42,226 bases of DNA from an uncultured Candidatus Saccharibacteria bacterium (GTDB taxonomy: Bacteria > Patescibacteriota > Minisyncoccia > Phycocordibacterales > WO2-35-19): the NCBI GenBank assembly GCA_964365465.1, contig CAYIPT010000003.1, positions 1 through 42,226 of the forward strand, read 5' to 3'. The number at the start of each line of letters is the position of its first letter. Within the stretch, counting starts at the first letter, position 1. The position numbers and the translations under genes were made by a program. Shown here in pieces: positions 17,369 to 42,226 of the stretch. The notes under the pieces were generated by a model. That model searched no databases and had not been told where the DNA came from. It saw only the letters and a program-made list of their open reading frames with translations.

Positions 17369-18322
17369 ATGAAAACAAAAGTTTTTGCAAGTGCGGCTAT
17401 GATCGCAGCTTTGATTGTTTTGGGGAGTCCGATATATTCGTTTGCCCAAACAACCGGAACCACAACCAGTGTTTCAAATCAGGTTCAAGCATTGCTTAAC
17501 CAAATAGAGAGTTTGCAGACGCAAATTCAAACACTCCAAGCTCTTCAGGGGCAAATTATAAAAGCGCAGGGAGAGGTAAGCCAATCGTTGAAGCTTATCC
17601 GCAGTTTGAGGCAGGGTATGAGTGGAGATGATGTCAAGGCCTTGCAAGCAATTTTGGCGGCCGATACCAGCATATATCCGGAAGGAATGATAACTGGTTT
17701 TTATGGCCGACTGACTTCAGAAGCGGTCAAAAGATTCCAAAAAAAGTATGGCATTGAAATGCTCGGTTTTGTGGGTCCCAAAACTATTAAAAAACTGAAT
17801 GAGGAAGTGGGTAAGCTATCACTTTCACAAGAGAATGATGACAATGATGAAGATAATGATGGAGATAAAAATGATAAAAAATTCTGTGCCAAAATTCCTC
17901 CGGGTCATCTAATAGCTCCCGGTTGGCTCAAGAAAAATAACAGTGTCAAACCCATCGTGCCCGAATGTCAAAAATTGCCAAAAGGCATAGAAGATAAATT
18001 GGATGATGATCGTGGCGCCATAACTGATACGACGGCACCTGTTATTTCCGGGGTGACTACTTCAAACCTCTTGGCTACTACTACCAATATTGTCTGGATC
18101 ACTAATGAAAAATCCAACAGCAAGGTCTGGTTTGGCACCACCACTCCGCTTAATTTAGGTCTACCGGCTTCTATAAGTTCGTCCGAGAAAGTCAAAGGTC
18201 ACAACCTATTGCTTTCCGGCTTGGCCACATCAACAACTTACTATTACATAGTAGGTTCATCTGACGAAAGGGGAAACACGGCGACATCAAGCCAAAACTT
18301 GTTCACCACTTTAGCAAACTAG
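17369..18322 (+). CDS. Secreted protein with peptidoglycan-binding domain and C-terminal Fn3-like domain
   Basis: Signal peptide; LRQGMSGDDVKALQ..TGFYGRLTSEAVKRFQ..VGPKT; DTTAPVIS..WITNE..LSGLATSTTYYY. Confidence 0.85.
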   Translation: MKTKVFASAAMIAALIVLGSPIYSFAQTTGTTTSVSNQVQALLNQIESLQTQIQTLQALQGQIIKAQGEVSQSLKLIRSLRQGMSGDDVKALQAILAADTSIYPEGMITGFYGRLTSEAVKRFQKKYGIEMLGFVGPKTIKKLNEEVGKLSLSQENDDNDEDNDGDKNDKKFCAKIPPGHLIAPGWLKKNNSVKPIVPECQKLPKGIEDKLDDDRGAITDTTAPVISGVTTSNLLATTTNIVWITNEKSNSKVWFGTTTPLNLGLPASISSSEKVKGHNLLLSGLATSTTYYYIVGSSDERGNTATSSQNLFTTLAN

Positions 18323-22570: not shown

Positions 22571-25318
22571 ATGGAATTTCCTCTGCCAAAAACTCCTTTC
22601 AAAAACACGGAAGATGAGATAACTCATTTGCGCCGTTTAATTGCCGAAAAGGAAAGAGCGCTGGAAAATATAGGCCTTAAAAAAGAATCTCTAGCGCCAA
22701 CCAGAGAAACTTTGGCGGAATATAAAACAGTGCCGGCCGGCGCGACTCTTCATCCGGAATATGAAATAAAAAAAGAAGAATTAGAAAAAATAGTCCTTAA
22801 ACTTTTTCCCGAAGAACATGATAAGCAAATCTCGGAGCTGGTTTTGCTGGCCAAAGAAAAAGGCATAAAAAATGCCCTTTCAGTGGTTGAAAAAATGGCA
22901 AATTTTCATATTACGGATGATTTTCACAGATTTATGGCCGAATATTTAAAAGAAGGATTCACCATACCGGGGCTGAATGTAAAAGAAAAAATTTCAAAGG
23001 GGCTCAATATGGCTTTGTATGAAATTTTAATACAGGAGGAAAGTGAAAAAGATAATATTAAAAATACTTTGGAAGAGGTGATTTCGGGCATGGAGCAATT
23101 TTATGCCGGTATGCTTTCCATTGCCGATTCGGATAAGCGCGAAGAAAGCTGGATGTCTTTGGAAATTGCCAATGCCAATTTTTCCCAAGAAATAGTTTTT
23201 TACGCAGCCGTGCCGAGCGCCCGCAAAAATCTTTTTGAAAAGCAAATTTTATCAATTTTTCATAACGCCAAAATTGCAGAAAAACCGGATGATTATAATA
23301 TTTTCAACGAAACCGGTCACACTGCCGGCGTCCGCGCCTCTTTTACAAAAAACCCCATTTATCCCCTGAAGACCTATGAAAGTTTTATGCACGATCCTCT
23401 CAATGTCATTCTTTCTTCATTTTCAAAAGTGAATAGAGACGGCGAAGGAGCCGCCATCCAGCTTATTTGGTCGCCGGCAGGAGAAAAATATGTCAAAAGA
23501 TACAAGAGCGCTTTGGATAAAATCCAAAAGGGCGCGCCTCTCAAAGAGGCCATAGACATACCCGATAGCATATCGGGAGAAGTTCTGCATACTTTCAAAG
23601 ATCTTTTCTCGTCTTCCAAAAAGAAAGACGAAAAGGGGGAAGAGAAAAAATCGGAACCCATTGATCAGGGAGCGGTAGAAGAAATAAAAAATAAAATCTC
23701 GGCGCCCATAGTATTATGCAATTTGCGTTTGCTGGCATCATCCGGCACCAAAGAGGAAGCGGAAGAAATATTAAGTTCCCTTAAATCAAGCTTCAATCAG
23801 TTTGATAACACTCTAGGCAACGCCTTAGAGTGGAAAAAAGAAGAAAAGGGGGGATTGAGAAATTTGGTCAGAAATTTCAGTTTCCGCATTTTTGACAATA
23901 ATAACGCTTTGCCAATGAATTTGAGAGAAGTCACTTCCATTATGCATTTTCACACCAAAGCGCTCTCTGCTTCCGAGGGTTTGCGTCAATCAAGGTCGGC
24001 AACCGCGCCAGCGCCTCTTGATATTGCCAAAGAAGGAATTTTGCTTGGCGTAAACAACCACAAAAATATAAATACAGAAATAAGAATGTCGGAAGACGGC
24101 GATCGCCTCAGACATTTTTATTGCATAGGCCAGACTGGCACCGGTAAAACCTCTTTGATTAGAGAAATGATAATTCAAGATATGAAAATGGGTCATGGAG
24201 TTTGTATGATTGACCCGCATGGCTCCGACCTTCAGCAGGTAATGGCCAATGTGCCGCCAGAGCGCTTTGACGATGTCATTTATTTTGATCCAGCTTACAC
24301 GGCGCGGCCTATGGCTCTCAATATGCTTGAATATGACGAAAATTTTCCGGAACAAAAGACATTTGTGGTTAATGAGCTTTTCAGCATTTTCAGAAAACTT
24401 TATGGCGCTATACCGGAATCAATGGGTCCCGCTTTTGAGCAATATTTCAGAAACTCGGCTCTTCTGGTGATGGATGATCCGACCTCGGGCAACACTTTGG
24501 TTGATATGTCTCGGGTTCTTTCAAATAAGCCATACAGAGACCTTAAAATATCAAAATGCAAAAATCCTCTGGTTAAGCAGTTTTGGGTCAATGCCGAAAA
24601 AACCACGGGCGAACAGGGTTTGGCCAATTATGTCCAATATGTAACCAATAAATTTGATGTCTTCCTGGCCAACGATATTATGCGGCCGGTTATTGCCCAG
24701 GAAAAATCATCCTTCAATTTTCGCGACATTATGGATAACAAAAAAATACTTTTGGTTAATCTTTCCAAGGGGCGGCTGGGAGATATAAACGCCAATCTTA
24801 TCGGTTTGGTTTTGGTTGGCAAAATTCTTATCGCCGCTCTTTCGCGCACCGATTCCTTCGGCAAGGACTTTCCGCCTTTTTATTTATACATAGATGAATT
24901 TCACAATATAACCACCGATTCCATTTCCACCATTCTTTCCGAAGCAAGAAAATATAAACTTTCTCTTATAATTGCCCATCAATTTATTGCCCAACTGGAA
25001 GAGGGGATTAAAAATTCGGTTTTTGGCAATGTCGGTTCAATTTGCGCTTTTAGAGTGGGCGCCGAGGACTCCGAAGTTTTGGAAAGTCAATTTGCTCCCG
25101 TTTTTTCCGCCAGTGATTTGATGAATATAGACAATCTTAACGCTTATTTGCGGCTTATGGTAAATGGCAAACCGGCAAAACCTTTTAATATAAAAATACC
25201 TCCATGGTCGCAAGGGAACAGCGAACAAGTAGAAAAACTGAAAGAGATGTCTTATATAAAATACGGCAAACCCCGCGAGGAAGTTGAAAAACTTATTTTG
25301 GAGAAATATAAAATATAA
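22571..25318 (+). CDS. TrwB/TraD/HerA-FtsK superfamily P-loop ATPase (coupling-protein-like)
   Basis: GQTGTGKT, IDPHG, LYIDEFHN, SEARKY.LSLIIAHQ, FGNVGS..AFRVG.ED. Confidence 0.85.
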   Translation: MEFPLPKTPFKNTEDEITHLRRLIAEKERALENIGLKKESLAPTRETLAEYKTVPAGATLHPEYEIKKEELEKIVLKLFPEEHDKQISELVLLAKEKGIKNALSVVEKMANFHITDDFHRFMAEYLKEGFTIPGLNVKEKISKGLNMALYEILIQEESEKDNIKNTLEEVISGMEQFYAGMLSIADSDKREESWMSLEIANANFSQEIVFYAAVPSARKNLFEKQILSIFHNAKIAEKPDDYNIFNETGHTAGVRASFTKNPIYPLKTYESFMHDPLNVILSSFSKVNRDGEGAAIQLIWSPAGEKYVKRYKSALDKIQKGAPLKEAIDIPDSISGEVLHTFKDLFSSSKKKDEKGEEKKSEPIDQGAVEEIKNKISAPIVLCNLRLLASSGTKEEAEEILSSLKSSFNQFDNTLGNALEWKKEEKGGLRNLVRNFSFRIFDNNNALPMNLREVTSIMHFHTKALSASEGLRQSRSATAPAPLDIAKEGILLGVNNHKNINTEIRMSEDGDRLRHFYCIGQTGTGKTSLIREMIIQDMKMGHGVCMIDPHGSDLQQVMANVPPERFDDVIYFDPAYTARPMALNMLEYDENFPEQKTFVVNELFSIFRKLYGAIPESMGPAFEQYFRNSALLVMDDPTSGNTLVDMSRVLSNKPYRDLKISKCKNPLVKQFWVNAEKTTGEQGLANYVQYVTNKFDVFLANDIMRPVIAQEKSSFNFRDIMDNKKILLVNLSKGRLGDINANLIGLVLVGKILIAALSRTDSFGKDFPPFYLYIDEFHNITTDSISTILSEARKYKLSLIIAHQFIAQLEEGIKNSVFGNVGSICAFRVGAEDSEVLESQFAPVFSASDLMNIDNLNAYLRLMVNGKPAKPFNIKIPPWSQGNSEQVEKLKEMSYIKYGKPREEVEKLILEKYKI

Positions 25319-26045: not shown

Positions 26046-26119
26046 GGGCCTGTAGCTCAGCTGGCTAGAGCGCTGCTATGGCATAGCAGAGGTCGCCCGT
26101 TCGAACCGGGTCAGGTCCA
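26046..26119 (+). tRNA. tRNA-Ala(GGC); probable integration site
   Basis: Acceptor GGGCCTG/CAGGTCC with G3.U70; anticodon arm CTGCT-ATGGCAT-AGCAG (A32-U38); T arm GCCCG-TTCGAAC-CGGGT. Confidence 0.95.
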
Positions 26120-27692
26120 CATCGTCGGAATTAGAGACAGCAAACTGCTCAAATAACCTTGTGTAGCTTTGTATTTTATCGGTTCGATAACCTTCTTTTT
26201 GGTCATACCACAATTTTTCCTCAAAGATAAAGAAAAACATCTTATGTTTTTCAACCAAAGGCAATTTTTTCCAAACAACATATGGACTTTTTAGAAAATT
26301 GGTAGATTTATCCAATGCAGTTCGATAAGGGATTGAATAGTCAGTTTTTCCAATAAGCTGATCGTCCAATATTTCTATTTTGTTTAAGATTTCTTTCAGT
26401 TGGCCTTTATATGCCCGAGTTAACTGATCATCAGTTGAATTAACGATAAGATCTGTGAGCCTCTTTGTTTTTTCTTCAAGAAGGGCTTTCTCTTGTTTTT
26501 TCTCCATATCTCTCTCTACAAACGCAGATATTTCTTGCTTCCATGTTCGGTCAAAAACCAGTTTAACCACATCGCCCACGTTTTTCTTGAGCTTTTGTTG
26601 TTTTATGATTGTATCAAGCTTTTTTTCTACATCGTCTCCAAACAATGATTTTCTGTACATCTTGCAGTCCCTATTCTGACAAAAGTAGTATGGGCGCTTG
26701 TACAATCCTTTGTTTTTCGTTGTTGTGGCCCCCGTAAGATGTTTACCACAACAGGCACACACGATTAAACCTCTGGCCGGAAATTCATCTGTGATATCCT
26801 TCCTTATCCTTTTACCCGTCAATTCATTGTTTAATCTTTTTTGATTTAACTCGAAAGTTTCAGCTGAGATTATAGCTTCGTGGTGGCCTTTTCTACGAGA
26901 TACTTCCCAAGGCAGATATTCAATGTCACCCATATAGAAGGGGTCTTTTAGCATGCTGGTAAATTCATCCGTATACTTTTCGGGATATTTTCCTTTCCAA
27001 AATCCTTTTTCCATAAGATATCTACATCCGTCAACCCTTCTTATAAAATTACCAGTGGAAAAACTTTCCAAGGCGTGCCTGATAATCGGGGCCTCTTTTT
27101 TGTTGGGAACAGCCAGAGTTCCGCATTTAGGATCTTTCACCATTTCATATCCTCTTTTGGCTACGAAAGCCCAATACCCTAACTCTAGGCGGGCTTTTGT
27201 TTTTTGAATAACTTGCCTTCTGTTTTGATGTCTTTCCAGTTCAGCTTGCGCCGCCATGATAGTCTCTACAAATCGTCCCTCATCGCTTTCATCAAATTGG
27301 AAATTTAAACATTTCAAAACCACATCCCTTGCTTTAAATACCGCTCTAAGTTTTAGATGAAATTCGGTATCTCTAGCAAATCTTTTTAGATCGTCGAATA
27401 TAACCAAGAACTTTTTATGGGGATTTGCGTCTATATAGGCGAGCATCTCTCTCATTGCCGGTCTTTTCATAAAGTCACCACCCCCGGAGTAGCTGTCTCT
27501 GAAAGATCGTTTGTAAGTTACTTGAATAGAATTGAGTTCCTTGACGCATCTCCCTTCCTGGGTTTGCAATCCAGTGCCGTCAATTTCCTGTCTTTTACTC
27601 GATACGCGGGCGTATACTAAACCCTCCATACCTTCATAAGGATTTTCTATCTTAGACTTCTGGGTTATTTGGCTGTTTGCTTTGAACGACAT
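26076..27692 (-). CDS. Large serine recombinase (resolvase, recombinase, Zn-ribbon and coiled-coil domains)
   Basis: YARVSS..Q catalytic motif, SGG....RP, DDLKRFAR, HEAIIS.ETF, CACC...YYFC....C. Confidence 0.93.
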   Translation of the reverse strand: MSFKANSQITQKSKIENPYEGMEGLVYARVSSKRQEIDGTGLQTQEGRCVKELNSIQVTYKRSFRDSYSGGGDFMKRPAMREMLAYIDANPHKKFLVIFDDLKRFARDTEFHLKLRAVFKARDVVLKCLNFQFDESDEGRFVETIMAAQAELERHQNRRQVIQKTKARLELGYWAFVAKRGYEMVKDPKCGTLAVPNKKEAPIIRHALESFSTGNFIRRVDGCRYLMEKGFWKGKYPEKYTDEFTSMLKDPFYMGDIEYLPWEVSRRKGHHEAIISAETFELNQKRLNNELTGKRIRKDITDEFPARGLIVCACCGKHLTGATTTKNKGLYKRPYYFCQNRDCKMYRKSLFGDDVEKKLDTIIKQQKLKKNVGDVVKLVFDRTWKQEISAFVERDMEKKQEKALLEEKTKRLTDLIVNSTDDQLTRAYKGQLKEILNKIEILDDQLIGKTDYSIPYRTALDKSTNFLKSPYVVWKKLPLVEKHKMFFFIFEEKLWYDQKEGYRTDKIQSYTRLFEQFAVSNSDDVDLTRFERATSAMP

Positions 27693-33949: not shown

Positions 33950-34261
33950 TTAAGTCGAGACGGTATTTTTGACCGATTTGTTTCTTTTCTTCTTCGGCCA
34001 ATTAGGACAGAATTTGATCAAGAACTTGATGGTTGACTCGCTACTGCTGTGAACCCAGAAACGCTCAAAGCACTTCGGGCATTCATAGATCACAGCTGAC
34101 GGGTTTGTACTAAGACTGAAACCGACAACTTGCTTTACCACCTCATCACTTGCTCCCAATGCGCTCCACCCTTCACAATTTCCGTTTTCACAACAGAAGC
34201 CTTCAGAGTGTGGGATTCCGTATATTTCAGCTCCCCACGATCTTACTTTGAGTTCAGGCAT
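33950..34261 (-). CDS. Cys/His-rich small protein, paralogue 3
   Basis: MPELKVRSWG..IPHS..CCE...C..YECPKCFERFWVH..CPNWP; AAGGAG RBS upstream. Confidence 0.75.
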   Translation of the reverse strand: MPELKVRSWGAEIYGIPHSEGFCCENGNCEGWSALGASDEVVKQVVGFSLSTNPSAVIYECPKCFERFWVHSSSESTIKFLIKFCPNWPKKKRNKSVKNTVST

Positions 34262-34530
34262 TTTGTGCTCTCCTTTTTTGGAAAGTTTGGACACCATCTT
34301 TGAGCATATTCGAGAAACGATTCTCTGCTCAAATGAACCCAAAACAGACTGAAGCACTCTGGACACCGAAAGATGAGTTTGTCATCTCGTATACCTACGA
34401 GATCTTTCCATGCATCGTGCGTCAAAACAAGTCTGAAAGAACAATTTTCAGACTCGCAACACCACCCGTTTGAGTGCGGTATTGATTCATCAAAGAACAC
34501 GCCCCAAGACCTTGGATTTAGCTTTGACAC
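34243..34530 (-). CDS. Cys/His-rich small protein, paralogue 2 (GTG start)
   Basis: VSKLNPRSWG..IPHS..WCCE...C..FRCPECFSLFWVH..CPNFP. Confidence 0.75.
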   Translation of the reverse strand: MSKLNPRSWGVFFDESIPHSNGWCCESENCSFRLVLTHDAWKDLVGIRDDKLIFRCPECFSLFWVHLSRESFLEYAQRWCPNFPKKESTKCLNSK

Positions 34531-34820
34531 GGTGCAGTATCCTTTCTTGGCCAATTCTTGGAAACCATCATGTCCTCGACATTCATGTCGTGAACATGGA
34601 ACCAAAATTTCTCAAAACACCTCGGGCATTCAACGATCATCTTGCCCGCAATTGACTGGTCACGTTTAACAATGGGTTCGTGAGCAAATCCAACCATATG
34701 GTCATAAAGTCTCATACCAAGAGTTGGACGCCAATAACATTCTGGATTTTTGCATTCCCATCTAGCTGAATACGGGATTGCTTCAGTCCAGACCACACCC
34801 CAAGACTTGAGTTCTGACAT
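34518..34820 (-). CDS. Cys/His-rich small protein, paralogue 1
   Basis: MSELKSWG..IPYS..WEC....C..VECPRCFEKFWFH..NWP; GGAGG RBS upstream. Confidence 0.75.
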   Translation of the reverse strand: MSELKSWGVVWTEAIPYSARWECKNPECYWRPTLGMRLYDHMVGFAHEPIVKRDQSIAGKMIVECPRCFEKFWFHVHDMNVEDMMVSKNWPRKDTAPCQS

Positions 34821-35219: not shown

Positions 35220-36215
35220 CTATCGCGAGTTTTGGAGTTTAAGCAACAACGCGTTGACTTGAGCTTGCAGAATTTTGATTTGCTCTTGAAGAGATAGGGT
35301 TGAGGGAGCTAGACATGAAGCGCTTGAAAGCAATGGGTTGATTCTGGCTCTGGTTTTGGGGCCGACAGAACCGTAACCTGTGGTCAAAGGAGTACCAGAA
35401 GAGACAATTCCCTGGGCTGCCTGGAATTTTTTGACTGCCGCCTCGGTGAGAGGTCCGAAGAAGCCCGTGTTGTTTCCAGTATCCAGATGGCCTTTGGAAA
35501 TGAGGAAGTTCTGCAGGTTGGTGACATCCTGCCCCTTGAGGCCCCGATAGAGATTGCGGACCAGGGAAGAAATAATTGCTCCCGGAACACAGGCCGTTCC
35601 TCCGCCGCCAGTGCTCCCACCCCCGCCTCCACCCGAACTTCCTCCGCCCCCGCCCCCGCCCGATGAACTGCCGGAAGAACTCGATCCGCCAGTGCCGCTT
35701 CCGCCTGAAGATGGGCTATTTATGGTGTAAGTTCCATTGACAACAGCGCTCAAGGTATCCGCGCCGCCCGCGGCTACATTTGAGTCGGTGGTGGCGCCGG
35801 CAGTGTGGTTAAAAATAATGCTGGCCGTTCCCGCCAATAATGCCTTAAAAGTAAGAGTGACCAAAGCGCCGGAACCCCGGTACTTGTTGCCCCCTGCGGT
35901 TACCTGAGAAAAAGTGATTCTGCCGAAATTCGTGTCAACGCTGTTAGCCAAAGTCATTGACATTAAACTTCCCGGAGCAATCTGGACCCCAGAGACGGAA
36001 GCATTGGCATCCTGCAACTGGAGAAGACCGGGATTGTAATTGAGATATCTCAAATCAACGCCGTCAATGGATGCCCCTTGGGTGTCAAGATTTACAACAA
36101 CTGAAAATGTGTCTCCCACATTAACACTTTGCGATGAAGGAGAAACTGACAATGTGGCGGCCGACGCCAAAAACGGCAACAGTAGGCCAATCGCGATAAA
36201 AGATATTTTTTTCAT
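35220..36215 (-). CDS. Secreted cohesin - Gly/Ser linker - peptidoglycan-binding domain protein
   Basis: Signal peptide; cohesin-type pattern V.VGDTFSV.V...LNYNP.LLQ...GSG.L.TLTFKA; LYRGLKGQDVTNLQNFL..TGFFGPLTEAAVKKFQ..VGPKTR. Confidence 0.85.
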   Translation of the reverse strand: MKKISFIAIGLLLPFLASAATLSVSPSSQSVNVGDTFSVVVNLDTQGASIDGVDLRYLNYNPGLLQLQDANASVSGVQIAPGSLMSMTLANSVDTNFGRITFSQVTAGGNKYRGSGALVTLTFKALLAGTASIIFNHTAGATTDSNVAAGGADTLSAVVNGTYTINSPSSGGSGTGGSSSSGSSSGGGGGGGSSGGGGGGSTGGGGTACVPGAIISSLVRNLYRGLKGQDVTNLQNFLISKGHLDTGNNTGFFGPLTEAAVKKFQAAQGIVSSGTPLTTGYGSVGPKTRARINPLLSSASCLAPSTLSLQEQIKILQAQVNALLLKLQNSR

Positions 36216-36266
36216 AATATTATCTTGTTAATTATTAATCTTATACTTTGTAATTTTACATTGTTG

Positions 36267-38171
36267 CTACTCTCCCGCCAACATCCAATTATTGGAAAGG
36301 TAGGCAAAATCAAGAGAATTTACCAAGCCGTCCCTATTAACGTCAGCTAGGGTATCACTGGCGCCCCATTTGCCGTTCATATAGGAAAAGTCCAGGGAAT
36401 TAATCAGTTGGTCGCTGTTGAAATCGCCGGCCGGTAAAGTCGGGAAATTGACATCAAGAACCGAAATGTTCCTCAAATCAACGCCTCCAAGCAATTTAGA
36501 CAAATAACCGGAAACCACTGGCCGGAGAGTGACTGTCGGCAAAAGCCCTGCCGGCACATCTATCGTGTATTGCCCGGAAGTATTCGTGGTAAAGCTTGCC
36601 TGATATATCTTTGAACTGAGATTTGACGGGTTAAGAAATTCAACTGTTCCTGACACATTTCTCTGGCTGGCAGGCGTTCCCTCCGGAACCAAGATTATTC
36701 TTCTTTGGACTAAAAGGGAAAGCATCGGCGTAGTGGCGCTCACTGATGCCGACCTTGCCGAAACATTGCCCGCGACATCAACGGCGGCTACCTGATAGCT
36801 GTATGTAGCGCCGGCAGTCAGTCCCGTATCCAAATAGGCGGTGCTGGCCGTGGTGCCCAAAGAGACACCCCCGCGGAATATTTGGTAATCGGACACTCCA
36901 GACACTGCCTGTCCCGCACCGGTTGGATCTGTGGAAGCGGTCCATGAAATTTGGATTTGGTTTTCACTGGTAGCCGTAGCTGTGACCCCGGCGGGTACCG
37001 TCGGAGAAGTGGTATCCGGCAAAGTTTGAGTGGTCAATGAGTTGTCAAATGAGAGGGCCAGGTTTCCTGCCGCATCGCGGGATCTTATCATGTAATGATA
37101 AACGGTGCCGGCCGAAAGACCCGAAAGAGTCGCCGAGTGAGAAGTGGCTAAAGAGGAATTGAGCGCGGTTGAAGCGCCGTAAGAAGCGGTAAGCCCATAA
37201 TCAACCTGGGTATCGCCCGGTTCGTTGGTGGTCCATGTAATGGTGGCGCCAGAGACGGTGACTCCGGAGACGGCAATGGCGGAAATGGTGGGAGGCGTAA
37301 TGTCCGGCGGGGCTTGAGTGGTGGCACTCGCCGCCGATGAATAAGCGGATAAATTGCCGGCGGCGTCTGTCGCTCTGATTCTGTACCTATAAATGGTGCT
37401 CGCGGAGAGGCCTGTGTCAGAATATGAATTGACGGCGGGAGTGGCGACTTGAGAATAAGTGGTGCAGGTGGCGGACCCCGAACACCTTTCAACTCTGTAT
37501 CCGGTTACCGCCACATTATCAGTGGAGGCAGTCCAGGAAAGATTTATTTGGGAAGAGGACATAACATTCAAAGAAGGGGTGCCCGGAGCGGTGGGGGCGG
37601 TGATGTCAGGAAGGGAAGTAACAGTATAAGAGCCGCTTCCCGCGGAAGCCAGCAAATCCCCGCCCAGTCCGGCAACATTTGTGTCGGTGCTGTTGCCTAG
37701 AGAGAAATCAAAAGCGGTATTTGAAATCCCAACAGCCAAAGCGCGGAAAGTGATAACGGCCAGAGTGCCTGAACCGTTATAAGTGGAGCCGGGATTAGCC
37801 AGCTGAGAAAATTGGATTGAACCGCCCGTGTTGTCCGCCAAGTTTATTATAGTCAAAGGCATAAGAGCTCCCGCCGCAATCTGCGTTCCTGCTGACGCTC
37901 CATCGGCATCCACCACCTGCAAAACACTCGGATTAAAGTGAAGATGGTTAATATCAACTCCATAAGCTCCCTGCCCTCCGGTGTTAACGGCGATATTTAC
38001 AGTAAAAGTGTTATTGACTGAGGCGGAATAGGAAGACGGCGAAAGAGAAACAGATGCGGTCGGCGACACTTGGGCCAGCTGGGTGCCGGCTGGCATCCCC
38101 GCCAAAGTCGCCTGCAATGTGAGCAATATGGCGGTAAGGATGGATACGATTTGTTGCAATGTTTGAATCAT
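36267..38171 (-). CDS. Secreted cohesin - three Fn3-like domains - Ig-like - dockerin protein
   Basis: Cohesin paralogous to the neighbour; three D.T.P...W...L...T.Y.Y...D.AGN repeats; C-terminal GDFNSDQLINSLD / DVNRDGLVNSLD pair. Confidence 0.85.
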   Translation of the reverse strand: MIQTLQQIVSILTAILLTLQATLAGMPAGTQLAQVSPTASVSLSPSSYSASVNNTFTVNIAVNTGGQGAYGVDINHLHFNPSVLQVVDADGASAGTQIAAGALMPLTIINLADNTGGSIQFSQLANPGSTYNGSGTLAVITFRALAVGISNTAFDFSLGNSTDTNVAGLGGDLLASAGSGSYTVTSLPDITAPTAPGTPSLNVMSSSQINLSWTASTDNVAVTGYRVERCSGSATCTTYSQVATPAVNSYSDTGLSASTIYRYRIRATDAAGNLSAYSSAASATTQAPPDITPPTISAIAVSGVTVSGATITWTTNEPGDTQVDYGLTASYGASTALNSSLATSHSATLSGLSAGTVYHYMIRSRDAAGNLALSFDNSLTTQTLPDTTSPTVPAGVTATATSENQIQISWTASTDPTGAGQAVSGVSDYQIFRGGVSLGTTASTAYLDTGLTAGATYSYQVAAVDVAGNVSARSASVSATTPMLSLLVQRRIILVPEGTPASQRNVSGTVEFLNPSNLSSKIYQASFTTNTSGQYTIDVPAGLLPTVTLRPVVSGYLSKLLGGVDLRNISVLDVNFPTLPAGDFNSDQLINSLDFSYMNGKWGASDTLADVNRDGLVNSLDFAYLSNNWMLAGE

Positions 38172-38204
38172 GTTTTTATATTAATTATACGCCTTGATTA
38201 TACC

Positions 38205-38942
38205 CTATGGCGTCCAATTTTGAACCATAATGACGTAGTCAAGGGAGTTGACGATGGTGTCGTGGTTCAGGTCGTAAATGGCATTGTTTTGGTTCCAGGC
38301 CGTAATCATGAGAGATAAGTCAATTGAGTTAACGAGGCCGTCATTGTTGAAGTCGCCTATGATGGGGACGGAATATAAAGCGAGATAGTTCTCCACGCTC
38401 CAGCCGTCGGCGCCCGAATCATAATTCACATTCCACCAGAAGTATCCGTCGGCACTTGTTCCTCCACTGACAATAGTTCCAAGAGAGCCGAGAGATTGAG
38501 TTCCTAATAATGCGCCGGTGGCAGAAGCGGCCGCCCTAACATTGAGGTTTGATGTTGTTTGCACGCGCTGGCCAGCGAAAAACTTGATGGAGGGGGGAAT
38601 GGAGGGAGAGATTGCCTTGCTCACCTGGGGCGAGAAAACACTTTCATTATTTGAAGTGTCGTAGGCGCTGACGGAAAAATAATATGTCAGGCCGTCTGTC
38701 AAATTATTAAAAGTATAAGTCCTGACATTGCCGGCATTCACAGTATTTGAATATCCGCAAAGTCCGCAAATCTTTGGGTCAGTGCCGGTCCTTTGACCGG
38801 TGCCGTAATATATCTTGTATCCCGAAAGGTCCGGCTCAGTATTAGCGTTCCAAGTCACCGTGGCCGAACCGGCCAAAGCGGTGTTTGCATAAAAAGCGAA
38901 AAACAATACCGCCAGTAAAACCAAAACAAATTTATTTTTCAT
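38205..38942 (-). CDS. Secreted Fn3 - SH3-like - dockerin protein
   Basis: Signal peptide; WNANTEPDLSGYKIYYG..TYYFSVSAYDTSNNES; LNVR..GY.WW.V.Y..G..GW; GDFNNDGLVNSID / DLNHDTIVNSLD. Start placed at ATG 38942. Confidence 0.85.
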   Translation of the reverse strand: MKNKFVLVLLAVLFFAFYANTALAGSATVTWNANTEPDLSGYKIYYGTGQRTGTDPKICGLCGYSNTVNAGNVRTYTFNNLTDGLTYYFSVSAYDTSNNESVFSPQVSKAISPSIPPSIKFFAGQRVQTTSNLNVRAAASATGALLGTQSLGSLGTIVSGGTSADGYFWWNVNYDSGADGWSVENYLALYSVPIIGDFNNDGLVNSIDLSLMITAWNQNNAIYDLNHDTIVNSLDYVIMVQNWTP

Positions 38943-39028
38943 ATTATTTGCCATTAATATTAACGCCATTAATTATATATTAAGGAAAATTGGTTGGCTA
39001 GCGCTCCTGTGGATGCAGAAACCTGATT

Positions 39029-39093
39029 CTACGTCCCGCCGACATATTCACCCCGCACCACTTTTGTTGGTGCTGGGGTTCATACGCTCCGAC
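39029..39093 (-). pseudogene. Orphan gene-tail copy D (VGAYE[hairpin]YVGGT*)
   Basis: Shares CCCGCCGACATATTCA and CATACGC with 41040-41060; interrupted by a 28-nt hairpin. Confidence 0.65.
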
Positions 39094-39775: not shown

Positions 39776-39906
39776 TTAATTAACGGTGACGCCGGAAGGG
39801 GCGGAGGTCCCGTCTCCGATCTTTGATCGGGACGAGGATCCTCGATTTTGTAACTCCGACTTCTTCGGAGACAAAATCGGGAGAGGAGTGGTGTCGGGCG
39901 TTCCCC
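39776..39906 (-). pseudogene. Orphan gene-tail copy C (GTPDTTP[hairpins]SAPSGVTVN*)
   Basis: Aligns with 42156-42210 once the ~75-nt palindromic insert (about 39808-39882) is removed. Confidence 0.7.
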
Positions 39907-40956: not shown

Positions 40957-40985
40957 TTTTAAATAATCAAGGATGAAGGATAATT

Positions 40986-41069
40986 TTAATTCACCGATAC
41001 TCCGCTGGGCGCCGCGGGCGGAGTAGTGTCGGGACTTCCCCCGCCGACATATTCATACGCGCCGATGTC
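40986..41069 (-). pseudogene. Orphan gene-tail copy B (DIGAYEYVGGGSPDTTPPAAPSGVSVN*)
   Basis: Intact 27-codon tail with no start codon, 20 nt after the previous stop; 31 nt identical to the window end. Confidence 0.8.
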
Positions 41070-42064: not shown

Positions 42065-42155
42065 GTTATAAATGTAGCATAATCTTAAAAAGTTTACAAT
42101 ACACTGTAAACTGTAAACTTAGTGATAAAAAAGAAAAGATTAATGATGAAGAATA

Positions 42156-42226
42156 TTAATTCACGGTGATACCGGAGGGGGCGGAGGGAGAAGTGGTGTC
42201 GGGACTTCCCCCGCCGACATATTCAT
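42156..42226 (-). CDS. 3' end of a probable secreted-protein gene entering from outside the window (tail copy A)
   Basis: Translates to (Y)EYVGGGSPDTTSPSAPSGITVN*. Cannot tell whether the upstream part is intact. Confidence 0.6.
   Translation of the reverse strand, partial: EYVGGGSPDTTSPSAPSGITVN

Follow-up and report, generated by a model that had tools for sequence, protein, structure and literature searches.

What would a cohesin-dockerin system hold together when none of its proteins is an enzyme? The question is raised by three co-oriented genes at positions 35,220 to 38,969 of contig CAYIPT010000003.1 (assembly GCA_964365465.1), a 42,226-nt stretch from an uncultured Candidatus Saccharibacteria bacterium that we call the window. 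They encode a cargo protein with a dockerin (gene 1), an adaptor scaffoldin with a cohesin, an Fn3 stalk and a dockerin (gene 2), and an anchor with a cohesin and a peptidoglycan-binding domain (gene 3). On balance we think it probable that the trio forms a non-cellulosomal, enzyme-free, three-tier cohesin-dockerin assembly on the surface of a Patescibacteria-like cell. A preliminary description, made from the letters of the DNA, had read the three proteins as tip, extender and anchor; domain content, conserved gene order and the fold of the extender's C-terminus all back that reading. It had also let the extender chain head to tail, which our data neither support nor refute. We prefer a three-tier hierarchy to such a polymer because an X-module-dockerin (X-Doc) dyad is found on the adaptor only, and because dockerins and cohesins fall into separate classes and clades.

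The three open reading frames (ORFs) lie on the minus strand where they had been placed, with gaps of 33 and 51 bp (Table 1); the likely start of gene 1 is M10 at 38942, also chosen in the preliminary description, giving a 245-aa product of the same form as database protein P0121. The predicted modules largely held up in hidden Markov model (HMM) searches. All Cohesin, dockerin, fn3 and PG_binding_1 modules of the trio score above the Pfam gathering cut-offs (24.1, 22.9, 25 and 23 bits for Cohesin, Dockerin_1, fn3 and PG_binding_1; 27 for SH3_3), the SH3-like part of the cargo being the one module recovered in part. Both cohesins thus belong to PF00963, and the anchor carries PF01471, from which peptidoglycan binding itself is predicted. 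Both dockerins show the PF00404 pattern of two segments of about 22 residues, each a 12-residue calcium loop (D1, N/D3, D/N5, D12) followed by a helix, and all four loops fit D-x-N-x-D-x-x-x-N-S-(I/L)-D. As had been claimed, none of the three proteins matches a catalytic domain at E<0.1, whether in Pfam or in NCBIfam; an NCBIfam CbhB match scores 177.5 bits where the cut-off is 1950 and is confined to the Fn3 region (profile positions 697-887). Each of the three frames is intact, the proteins share 60-78% identity with full-length homologues in many metagenomes, and each has dozens of 90%-identity clusters there.

Ahead of the adaptor's dockerin lies an X-module that the preliminary description did not list, as it did not list the conserved heptad helix that ends the anchor. 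In an AlphaFold2 (AF2) model built on an alignment with ten related loci, the adaptor's last 151 residues (484-634) fold as an X-Doc dyad, with a predicted local distance difference test score (pLDDT) of 79.3 overall and 82-93 in the dockerin helices. All ten top-ranking Foldseek hits to the PDB are chains from type II cohesin/X-module-dockerin complexes (3kcp, 2b59, three chains of 4fl4, 4u3s, 5g5d, 4wi0, 5k39 and 5m0y), with probability 1.00, TMq 0.58-0.68 and E 1.7e-6 to 4.7e-5; the next match has E 4e-3. A profile of the adaptor C-terminus also found 2b59_B by sequence (E 5.2e-8, query 43-143), through both X-module and dockerin. The adaptor thus ends as a primary scaffoldin does, in a dyad that in the matched structures is the plug fixing a primary scaffoldin to an anchoring scaffoldin.

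Alignment of 26 dockerins from the window and the related loci L024-L029 separates a cargo type from an adaptor type, with consistent differences on both helices and in the tail. In these close loci the cargo dockerins read …GDFNxDGLVNSIDLSLMxSAWN…YDLNxDxxVNSLDYVIMVQNWTP-end and the adaptor dockerins …PAGDFNxDQLINSLDFSYMNxKWG…ADVNRDGxVNSLDFAYLSNNWLxSGE. N-S-(L/I/V)-D is nearly universal among the 26, so the NS(L/I)D noted earlier, which can indeed be read in all four loops of the trio, is close to the lineage consensus and marks the family; it is not special to the window locus. A larger set of 212 dockerins was gathered by homology to these genes and includes duplicate DNA (L026 = L057), so its counts describe a pattern and not a frequency: an X-module precedes 58 of the 59 dockerins on cohesin-bearing proteins, 57 of which have a tail of the G[ED] type, while among the dockerins of proteins with no cohesin match it is present in 25 of 153 and absent in 128.

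The cohesins also divide by role. A tree of 35 rows places the close-locus anchors in a clade of seven (support 91/94), and the adaptors in a clade of eight plus one long-branch, contig-cut row (80/89). The role labels require 5 changes on this tree, against a mean of 10.2 when shuffled, and 0 of 500 shuffles came as low; clustered labels can arise from relatedness alone, and the weight lies on both paralogues having been kept together across genera. The four cohesin and dockerin modules are linked in one locus with one shared history, so mirror-tree co-evolution cannot tell the pairings apart. Both cohesin profiles match PDB entries weakly, scaffoldin (ScaB) cohesins being best at E about 1e-3; single cohesin domains found no match among PDB sequences with phmmer.

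The anchor alignment was scanned against one genome per species, and the 17 loci recovered were annotated with Pfam (97 ORFs) and with HMMs derived from cohesins and dockerins of the lineage itself. An adaptor gene immediately precedes the anchor cohesin gene in 10 of the 17, the synteny that the preliminary description had proposed as a check: L024, L026, L027 (as two ORFs), L028 (cut at a contig end), L029, L031, L032, L033, L035 and L037. A dockerin-only cargo gene adjoins the adaptor upstream in five of these ten (L026, L029, L031, L032, L035) and is nearby in two more (L024, L027), with Fic/AbiEii or other genes between. The other loci vary: (i) L034, L036 and L040 are two-tier; (ii) L039 encodes a 1925-aa fusion of dockerin, cohesin and PG_binding_1; (iii) L025 has anchor and cargo and lacks the adaptor; (iv) L030 is cut at a contig end; and (v) in L038 a cohesin-Big_7-Fn3-PG_binding protein comes after a contig-cut cohesin ORF. 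The ends of the system differ between loci. Anchors terminate in one or two PG_binding_1 domains (window, L024, L025, the frameshifted L026, L032, L006, L007), in a short amphipathic tail (L027-L029), in a conserved C-terminal domain of about 200 aa (L031, L033, L035, L036) or in a transmembrane (TM) segment (L040), and cargo heads are Laminin_G_3, Laminin_G_3 with beta-helix, Fn3 with unknown parts, or SH3b-like. This pattern of constant plugs and variable ends looks like a display system, and it is our main reason for preferring the hierarchy.

In the assembly that we propose, the secreted anchor would hold its own cell's peptidoglycan through PG_binding_1, perhaps as an oligomer formed by the heptad helix, and display its cohesin on a Gly/Ser linker. 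The adaptor's C-terminal X-Doc would plug into that cohesin, and the stalk of three Fn3 modules would keep the adaptor's own, paralogous cohesin off the wall. Into this second socket the bare dockerin of the cargo would plug, making Fn3 plus the SH3b-like domain a distal head whose target is most likely the wall or a glycan of another cell. The plug-socket pairing and its calcium dependence follow the cellulosome paradigm, and the domain families suggest self-wall anchoring and an adhesive role of the head; attachment of an episymbiont to a host wall, as the preliminary description envisaged, would be the outcome.

Several observations weigh against this proposal. The adaptor and anchor cohesins are paralogues (43% identity, hhalign probability 100) with the same best PDB sequence matches, which makes cross-reactivity conceivable, and the adaptor cohesin barely clears Pfam (25.1 against 24.1 bits). 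Co-folding of the anchor cohesin, adaptor cohesin and adaptor X-Doc, a three-chain job unlike the tool's calibration, gave ipSAE values of 0.11 and 0.21, where the mark is 0.32, and speaks neither for nor against binding. The adaptor's leader departs from a canonical Sec signal. One related genome (G019, the genome of L025; 95% complete, in 70 contigs) holds an anchor 69% identical to that of the window and a 1051-aa cargo with a cargo-type dockerin, and searches with the adaptor protein and with Pfam cohesin and dockerin found no adaptor orthologue in it; its cargo dockerins could bind anchor cohesins directly, or the partner cohesin could be missing. A 1360-aa Fn3-PG_binding ORF beside that anchor is truncated by the start of the contig and may be where the missing cohesin lies, as cohesin-stalk-PG_binding proteins do occur (L038). 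In the two-tier loci, L036 and L040 dockerins have the adaptor-like G[ED]-type tail, and that of L036 alone also has an X-like module, a suggestive but incomplete sign that adaptor-like dockerins face anchors there; the small dockerin protein of L034 has neither. Finally, the polarity could be reversed, with PG_binding_1 on a foreign wall. That some relatives have anchors with a terminal TM segment or amphipathic tail is an argument for the anchor staying with its producer.

Adaptors could instead polymerize, each dockerin binding the cohesin of another adaptor in a chain begun at the anchor and capped by cargo. The adaptor chain does hold one cohesin and one dockerin, the likeness of the two cohesins makes some cross-binding conceivable, and the two-cohesin adaptors of L035 and L037, together with the position of the first L035 cohesin among the anchors (below), would permit concatenation in those loci. 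We nevertheless find polymerization quite unlikely: the split into two conserved dockerin classes and two cohesin clades speaks for two specificities, the dyad resembles modules whose partner in solved complexes is the cohesin of a separate anchoring protein, and cellulosomal X-Doc modules are not known to bind cohesins of their own scaffoldin. Moreover, cargo and adaptor dockerins would compete for one site, leaving the conserved cargo class without a ready explanation. Another arrangement is a display with no hierarchy, in which both dockerins bind the anchor cohesin, perhaps both cohesins, the adaptor being an optional spacer and cargo sitting directly on the anchor. The genome with anchor and cargo and no adaptor found, and the very existence of two-tier loci, speak for it, but that genome is fragmented and the ORF next to its anchor truncated, while the anchor-facing dockerins of L036 and L040 have the adaptor-like tail described above; we hold this arrangement to be unlikely.

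A three-tier assembly might also be right in structure and serve another purpose, organizing the cell's own envelope or capturing polymers or particles such as wall glycans, extracellular matrix, and mineral or biofilm surfaces. Heads of related loci are lectin-like (Laminin_G_3) or beta-helical, and such modules bind carbohydrates in general; no host is known for the source organism. The arguments against are indirect: SH3b domains are usually wall-binding. In addition, passages of PMC10633639 report a dockerin protein that is essential in an epibiotic Saccharibacterium, with host-glycan binding speculated by the authors, and we regard a different job as rather unlikely. Least credible, and in our view most improbable, is that the trio is the remnant of a recently acquired island, possibly unexpressed and with no current role. 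Its composition would fit recent arrival, with GC at 0.503 against 0.39 genome-wide, partly owing to amino-acid composition, and GC at third codon positions also raised, to 0.52-0.54 against 0.30-0.41 in the window's eight core or neighboring genes outside the toxin-antitoxin/RhuM island. So would the lack of an anchor orthologue in 16 same-genus genomes, where matches were to the PG_binding part only or to cohesins of about 32% identity, and the nucleotidyltransferase, RhuM and recombinase genes that flank the trio. Against decay stand the three intact frames, the conserved motifs, the close full-length homologues in many metagenomes, and a gene order maintained across genera.

Table 1. Window coordinates of the three genes, their modules and the upstream promoter-like site
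Feature	Position	Strand	Basis or remark
Promoter-like site upstream of gene 1 (TAGCCA-17-TATAAT)	38972..39000	-	consensus scan only
Gene 1, cargo/tip protein	38205..38969	-	254 aa from first ATG; signal peptide, Fn3, SH3b-like, bare dockerin
Cargo Fn3 domain	38631..38870	-	Pfam fn3 29.7 bits; AF2 pLDDT 83-94
Cargo SH3b-like domain (probable)	38367..38621	-	SH3_3 sub-threshold; homologues, ESM Atlas
Cargo-type dockerin, loops DFNNDGLVNSID, DLNHDTIVNSLD; no X-module, ends ...QNWTP	38208..38363	-	Pfam 33.6 bits
Gene 2, adaptor/extender scaffoldin	36267..38171	-	634 aa
Adaptor N-terminal leader MIQTLQQI...QLAQV	38067..38171	-	hydrophobic, no basic n-region; putative function
Adaptor-type cohesin	37611..38057	-	Pfam 25.1 bits; lineage HMM E 3.5e-50
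Three Fn3 modules (stalk)	36726..37589	-	Pfam fn3, 3 stretches, 71.8 bits
X-module (beta-sandwich, ~95 aa) ahead of dockerin	36438..36719	-	AF2 model, fold and profile matches
Adaptor-type dockerin, loops DFNSDQLINSLD, DVNRDGLVNSLD; tail ...NWMLAGE	36270..36434	-	Pfam 33.7 bits
Gene 3, anchor protein	35220..36215	-	331 aa
Anchor signal peptide (…ASA|A)	36159-36215	-	sequence
Anchor-type cohesin	35712..36158	-	Pfam 36.3 bits; lineage HMM E 2.2e-78
Gly/Ser-rich linker	35598..35711	-	sequence; length varies in anchor alignment
PG_binding_1 domain	35394..35534	-	Pfam 44.0 bits, cut-off 23
C-terminal heptad (coiled-coil-like) helix SLQEQIKILQAQVNALLLKLQ	35232..35294	-	kept in most of 22 aligned homologues

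The cargo has a canonical Sec-type signal peptide (…TALA|GS). Its Fn3 domain contains an insertion, RTGTDPKxCGxCGY, whose C-x-x-C loop (PKxCGxCGY) with two Cys recurs in most homologues, though not all; several have a single Cys in the loop, and the motif is also found in many minimal Fn3-dockerin proteins of 166 aa. The preliminary description had called the following domain SH3-like, and the stretch of about 85 aa is probably SH3b-like. SH3_3 run on this 83-aa stretch alone gives 14.5 bits (E 0.04), below its cut-off and spanning profile positions 1-53 of 54; the assignment is made because homologues pass the cut-off and because of matches in the ESM Atlas. P0132 and P0142, 66% and 61% identical over the stretch, score 32.8 and 29.1 bits, and each has three tandem copies of the domain. 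SH3_3 clusters are the top feature matches in the ESM Atlas (0.90), with TM scores of 0.78-0.88 to SH3_3 parts. The AF2 model of the cargo (mean pLDDT 71.9) is confident for the Fn3 and dockerin domains (dockerin helices 86-96) and below 50 for the SH3-like part. That part directly abuts the dockerin, and the protein stops three residues past the last helix; the combination of SH3-like domain and cargo-class dockerin occurs behind other N-terminal parts in P0122, P0123, P0127 and P0128.

Window cargo and anchor carry ordinary Sec signals, unlike the adaptor. Its leader, M-x-QTLQQI...(hydrophobic)...QLAQV, also occurs in L024, L025, L026, L057 and L058 and is common to the adaptor and several large dockerin cargos; it may be a lineage-specific export or processing signal. 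Adaptor homologues in a large protein collection fall into lengths of about 530-555, 614-676 and 722-729 aa, which would correspond, judging by length, to two, three and four Fn3 modules and so to a variable stalk. Two adaptors (L035:470-2593 and L037:2-1795) have two cohesins each. The L035 and L037 anchor cohesins, which pair with each other at 99/68, are joined in the tree by the first cohesin of the L035 adaptor (88/61), and adaptors could stack on adaptors in these lineages. The anchor's C-terminal helix has three heptads in a clean pattern, LQxQIxxLQxxVxxLLLKLQ, and may oligomerize the protein. Neither SLH (S-layer homology) repeats nor an LPXTG sortase signal were found in the anchor, by sequence or Pfam.

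How does the trio compare with known systems? The closest parallel is the anchored clostridial cellulosome (Clostridium thermocellum; 2b59, 3kcp, 4fl4), which has the same three tiers, from bare-dockerin cargo through a cohesin scaffoldin with X-Doc to a wall-bound cohesin protein, and whose dyad is the best match of the adaptor C-terminus in both sequence and fold. There, enzyme-DocI sits on CipA CohI, and CipA X-DocII on an SdbA-type CohII-SLH protein. The window trio differs in having no enzymes and no carbohydrate-binding module (CBM), one cohesin per scaffoldin and not nine, an Fn3 stalk, PG_binding_1 plus a heptad helix in place of SLH repeats, and a host genome of 650 kb that is Patescibacteria-like. 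Since dockerin-borne carbohydrate-active enzymes, a multi-cohesin scaffoldin with a cellulose-binding CBM, and anchoring by SLH repeats or a sortase signal are all lacking, the trio is not a cellulosome. ScaB-type adaptor scaffoldins of Acetivibrio cellulolyticus and Pseudobacteroides cellulosolvens likewise join a cargo level to an anchoring level by a protein with cohesin and dockerin, and theirs are the cohesins that both window profiles match best; the window adaptor differs in having one cohesin, which would carry a non-enzymatic head. In Ruminococcus flavefaciens, CttA X-Doc and the ScaE cohesin form an adhesion link, a non-catalytic binding protein held on a wall-anchored cohesin. This too is X-module-dockerin fastening of a non-catalytic binder for adhesion and not catalysis, but that link has two tiers, its cohesin is anchored by sortase, and its head binds cellulose as part of a full cellulosome system.

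Pfam detects dockerins in 22 of 61 genomes (the source genome and 60 relatives), cohesins in 16 and both in 14. It is insensitive to the lineage's cohesins and dockerins, and in the source genome the lineage HMMs add a third dockerin and two more cohesins, all on contig C39. Related records are labelled Patescibacteria: Paceibacterota, Zambryskibacteria, Doudnabacteria, Azambacteria and some Saccharibacteria. Orthologues of the trio anchor (at least 60% identity) occur in 4 of the 60 relatives, all from other genera: G019, G035, G024 (cut) and G028 (split). Locus genes are GC-richer than their flanks by 0.03-0.08 in four of six related loci measured. When viral contigs were scanned with the anchor alignment, 0 of the 71 pattern matches proved to be relatives, and so there is no sign here of a phage-borne version.

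The source genome has further cohesins. Contig C39 (L059:1-2427, 2.4 kb) encodes a Big_6 plus dockerin protein that is truncated where the contig ends; behind it come two cohesin proteins, each with a terminal TM segment, and a weak cohesin protein of 428 aa with a C-terminal TM lies at C13:14912-16201 (L004:649-1935). The Big_6 protein is the only other dockerin protein found in this genome. Because the extra cohesins all end in TM segments, they point to a second, membrane-anchored cohesin-dockerin set, most of which escapes Pfam. Similar pairs, a dockerin protein of roughly 440 aa beside a cohesin protein of roughly 430 aa, were seen in G024, G028 and G035.

The most elaborate relative is G028 (= L026; L057:1-19000, L058:1-12800, G028:C1:9001-40800), where about 27 kb of co-oriented genes stand ahead of one adaptor and one frameshifted anchor. 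The array includes at least four intact dockerin cargos (1073, 932, 892 and 521 aa), besides more Laminin_G_3 proteins, pieces of 50-134 aa that consist of a dockerin alone, and leader fragments in repeated copies, all interspersed with HepT/MNT, HEPN, AbiEii, PemK, Gp49, DUF4143 and RhuM genes. The window looks like a short version of such a cargo array. Heads there share the 5' leader (MxQTLQQI...QLAQV) and the 3' dockerin, and these ends also occur as fragments in the array, which suggests that heads may be exchanged by recombination at constant ends. A tentative extension, which we consider possible though not probable, is that Patescibacteria carry a horizontally mobile, modular 'adhesosome' with a constant wall anchor and Fn3 stalk connected through cohesin-dockerin plugs, onto which interchangeable heads are clipped as a switchable host or surface determinant.

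The source assembly totals 649,267 bases in 43 contigs and is rated 96% complete; the window is one entire contig of it (C3). A sequencing-run search placed the stretch in four DNA runs, all groundwater metagenomes of one study, and listed no RNA run holding it. The left 25 kb of the window are housekeeping genes, among them those for peptidoglycan synthesis (two penicillin-binding protein transpeptidases, a Mur ligase, MraW, VanY and two MreB), which counts in favor of the proposed assembly. A PG_binding_1 plus Fn3-like protein of 317 aa (17369-18322) is surrounded by cell-wall synthesis genes, and a 915-aa VirD4/TrwB-like coupling protein (22571-25318) comes immediately ahead of a putative island. 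At 26046-27692 the 3' part of a tRNA-Ala(GGC) gene is overlapped by the end of a gene for a 538-aa large serine recombinase, after which comes a MerR-type regulator. This junction at ~26 kb may be one border of an integrated element; as far as the contig end, no second att-like repeat was found.

Upstream of the trio lie genes for a 107-aa nucleotidyltransferase, a RhuM-family protein and a helix-turn-helix-phosphoribosyltransferase (PRTase); downstream are three tandem small Cys-rich ORFs, a trypsin-like protease and a beta-flower protein. The three ORFs (33950-34820, minus strand; 100-138 aa) partly overlap and are paralogous, with a common Cys pattern (…CPxCFExFWxH…) and no Pfam match. An intergenic repeat of ~84 nt with an internal hairpin (TGTCGG...CCGACA) occurs at 40973-41056 and at 42143-42226, the contig end, with partial copies at 39883-39906 and 39035-39050 and another at C21:537-566. 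It sits ahead of the PRTase gene, the RhuM gene, the next small gene and the cohesin-dockerin operon, and as the contig ends inside a copy, the array may run on in another contig. An integron-like cassette array, which this repeat before several upstream genes suggested, was set aside: the scanned genes include no tyrosine integrase, only the serine recombinase, and the repeats of G028 belong to the cargo genes, whose coding ends they form.

Cohesins and dockerins outside cellulosomes are a known phenomenon, and we rate the tiered enzyme-free operon with a peptidoglycan anchor as a new variant. Non-cellulosomal modules were surveyed by Peer et al. 2009, as cited in a passage of PMC10066038, and passages of PMC10633639 and PMC10066038 suggest that cohesin and dockerin modules outside plant-cell-wall degraders are adhesins. 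The Saccharibacteria dockerin protein SEML1_0315 was scored as essential by transposon sequencing, and the passages of PMC10633639 that treat it name no partner; giant ORFs of Omnitrophota include dockerin-bearing proteins, according to a section of PMC10066038. As these passages present them, the Saccharibacteria and Omnitrophota cases are single dockerin-bearing proteins, whereas the window has a cohesin partner, an anchor and a tiered operon. Our full-text literature search, which covered main texts, with supplements and Peer et al. 2009 itself outside its scope, turned up no account from Patescibacteria of a cohesin-dockerin operon that is tiered, free of enzymes and equipped with a peptidoglycan-binding anchor.

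The trio extends the use of X-module-dockerin anchoring, familiar from clostridial cellulosomes, to a setting outside polysaccharide degradation, and is a natural minimal enzyme-free cohesin-dockerin scaffold with a peptidoglycan anchor. On how ultrasmall Patescibacteria recognize and hold their partners, the published work drawn on here centers on type IV pili. A three-gene kit with predicted plug-socket pairs offers a directly testable molecular model of attachment, and its swappable heads are candidate determinants of host range.

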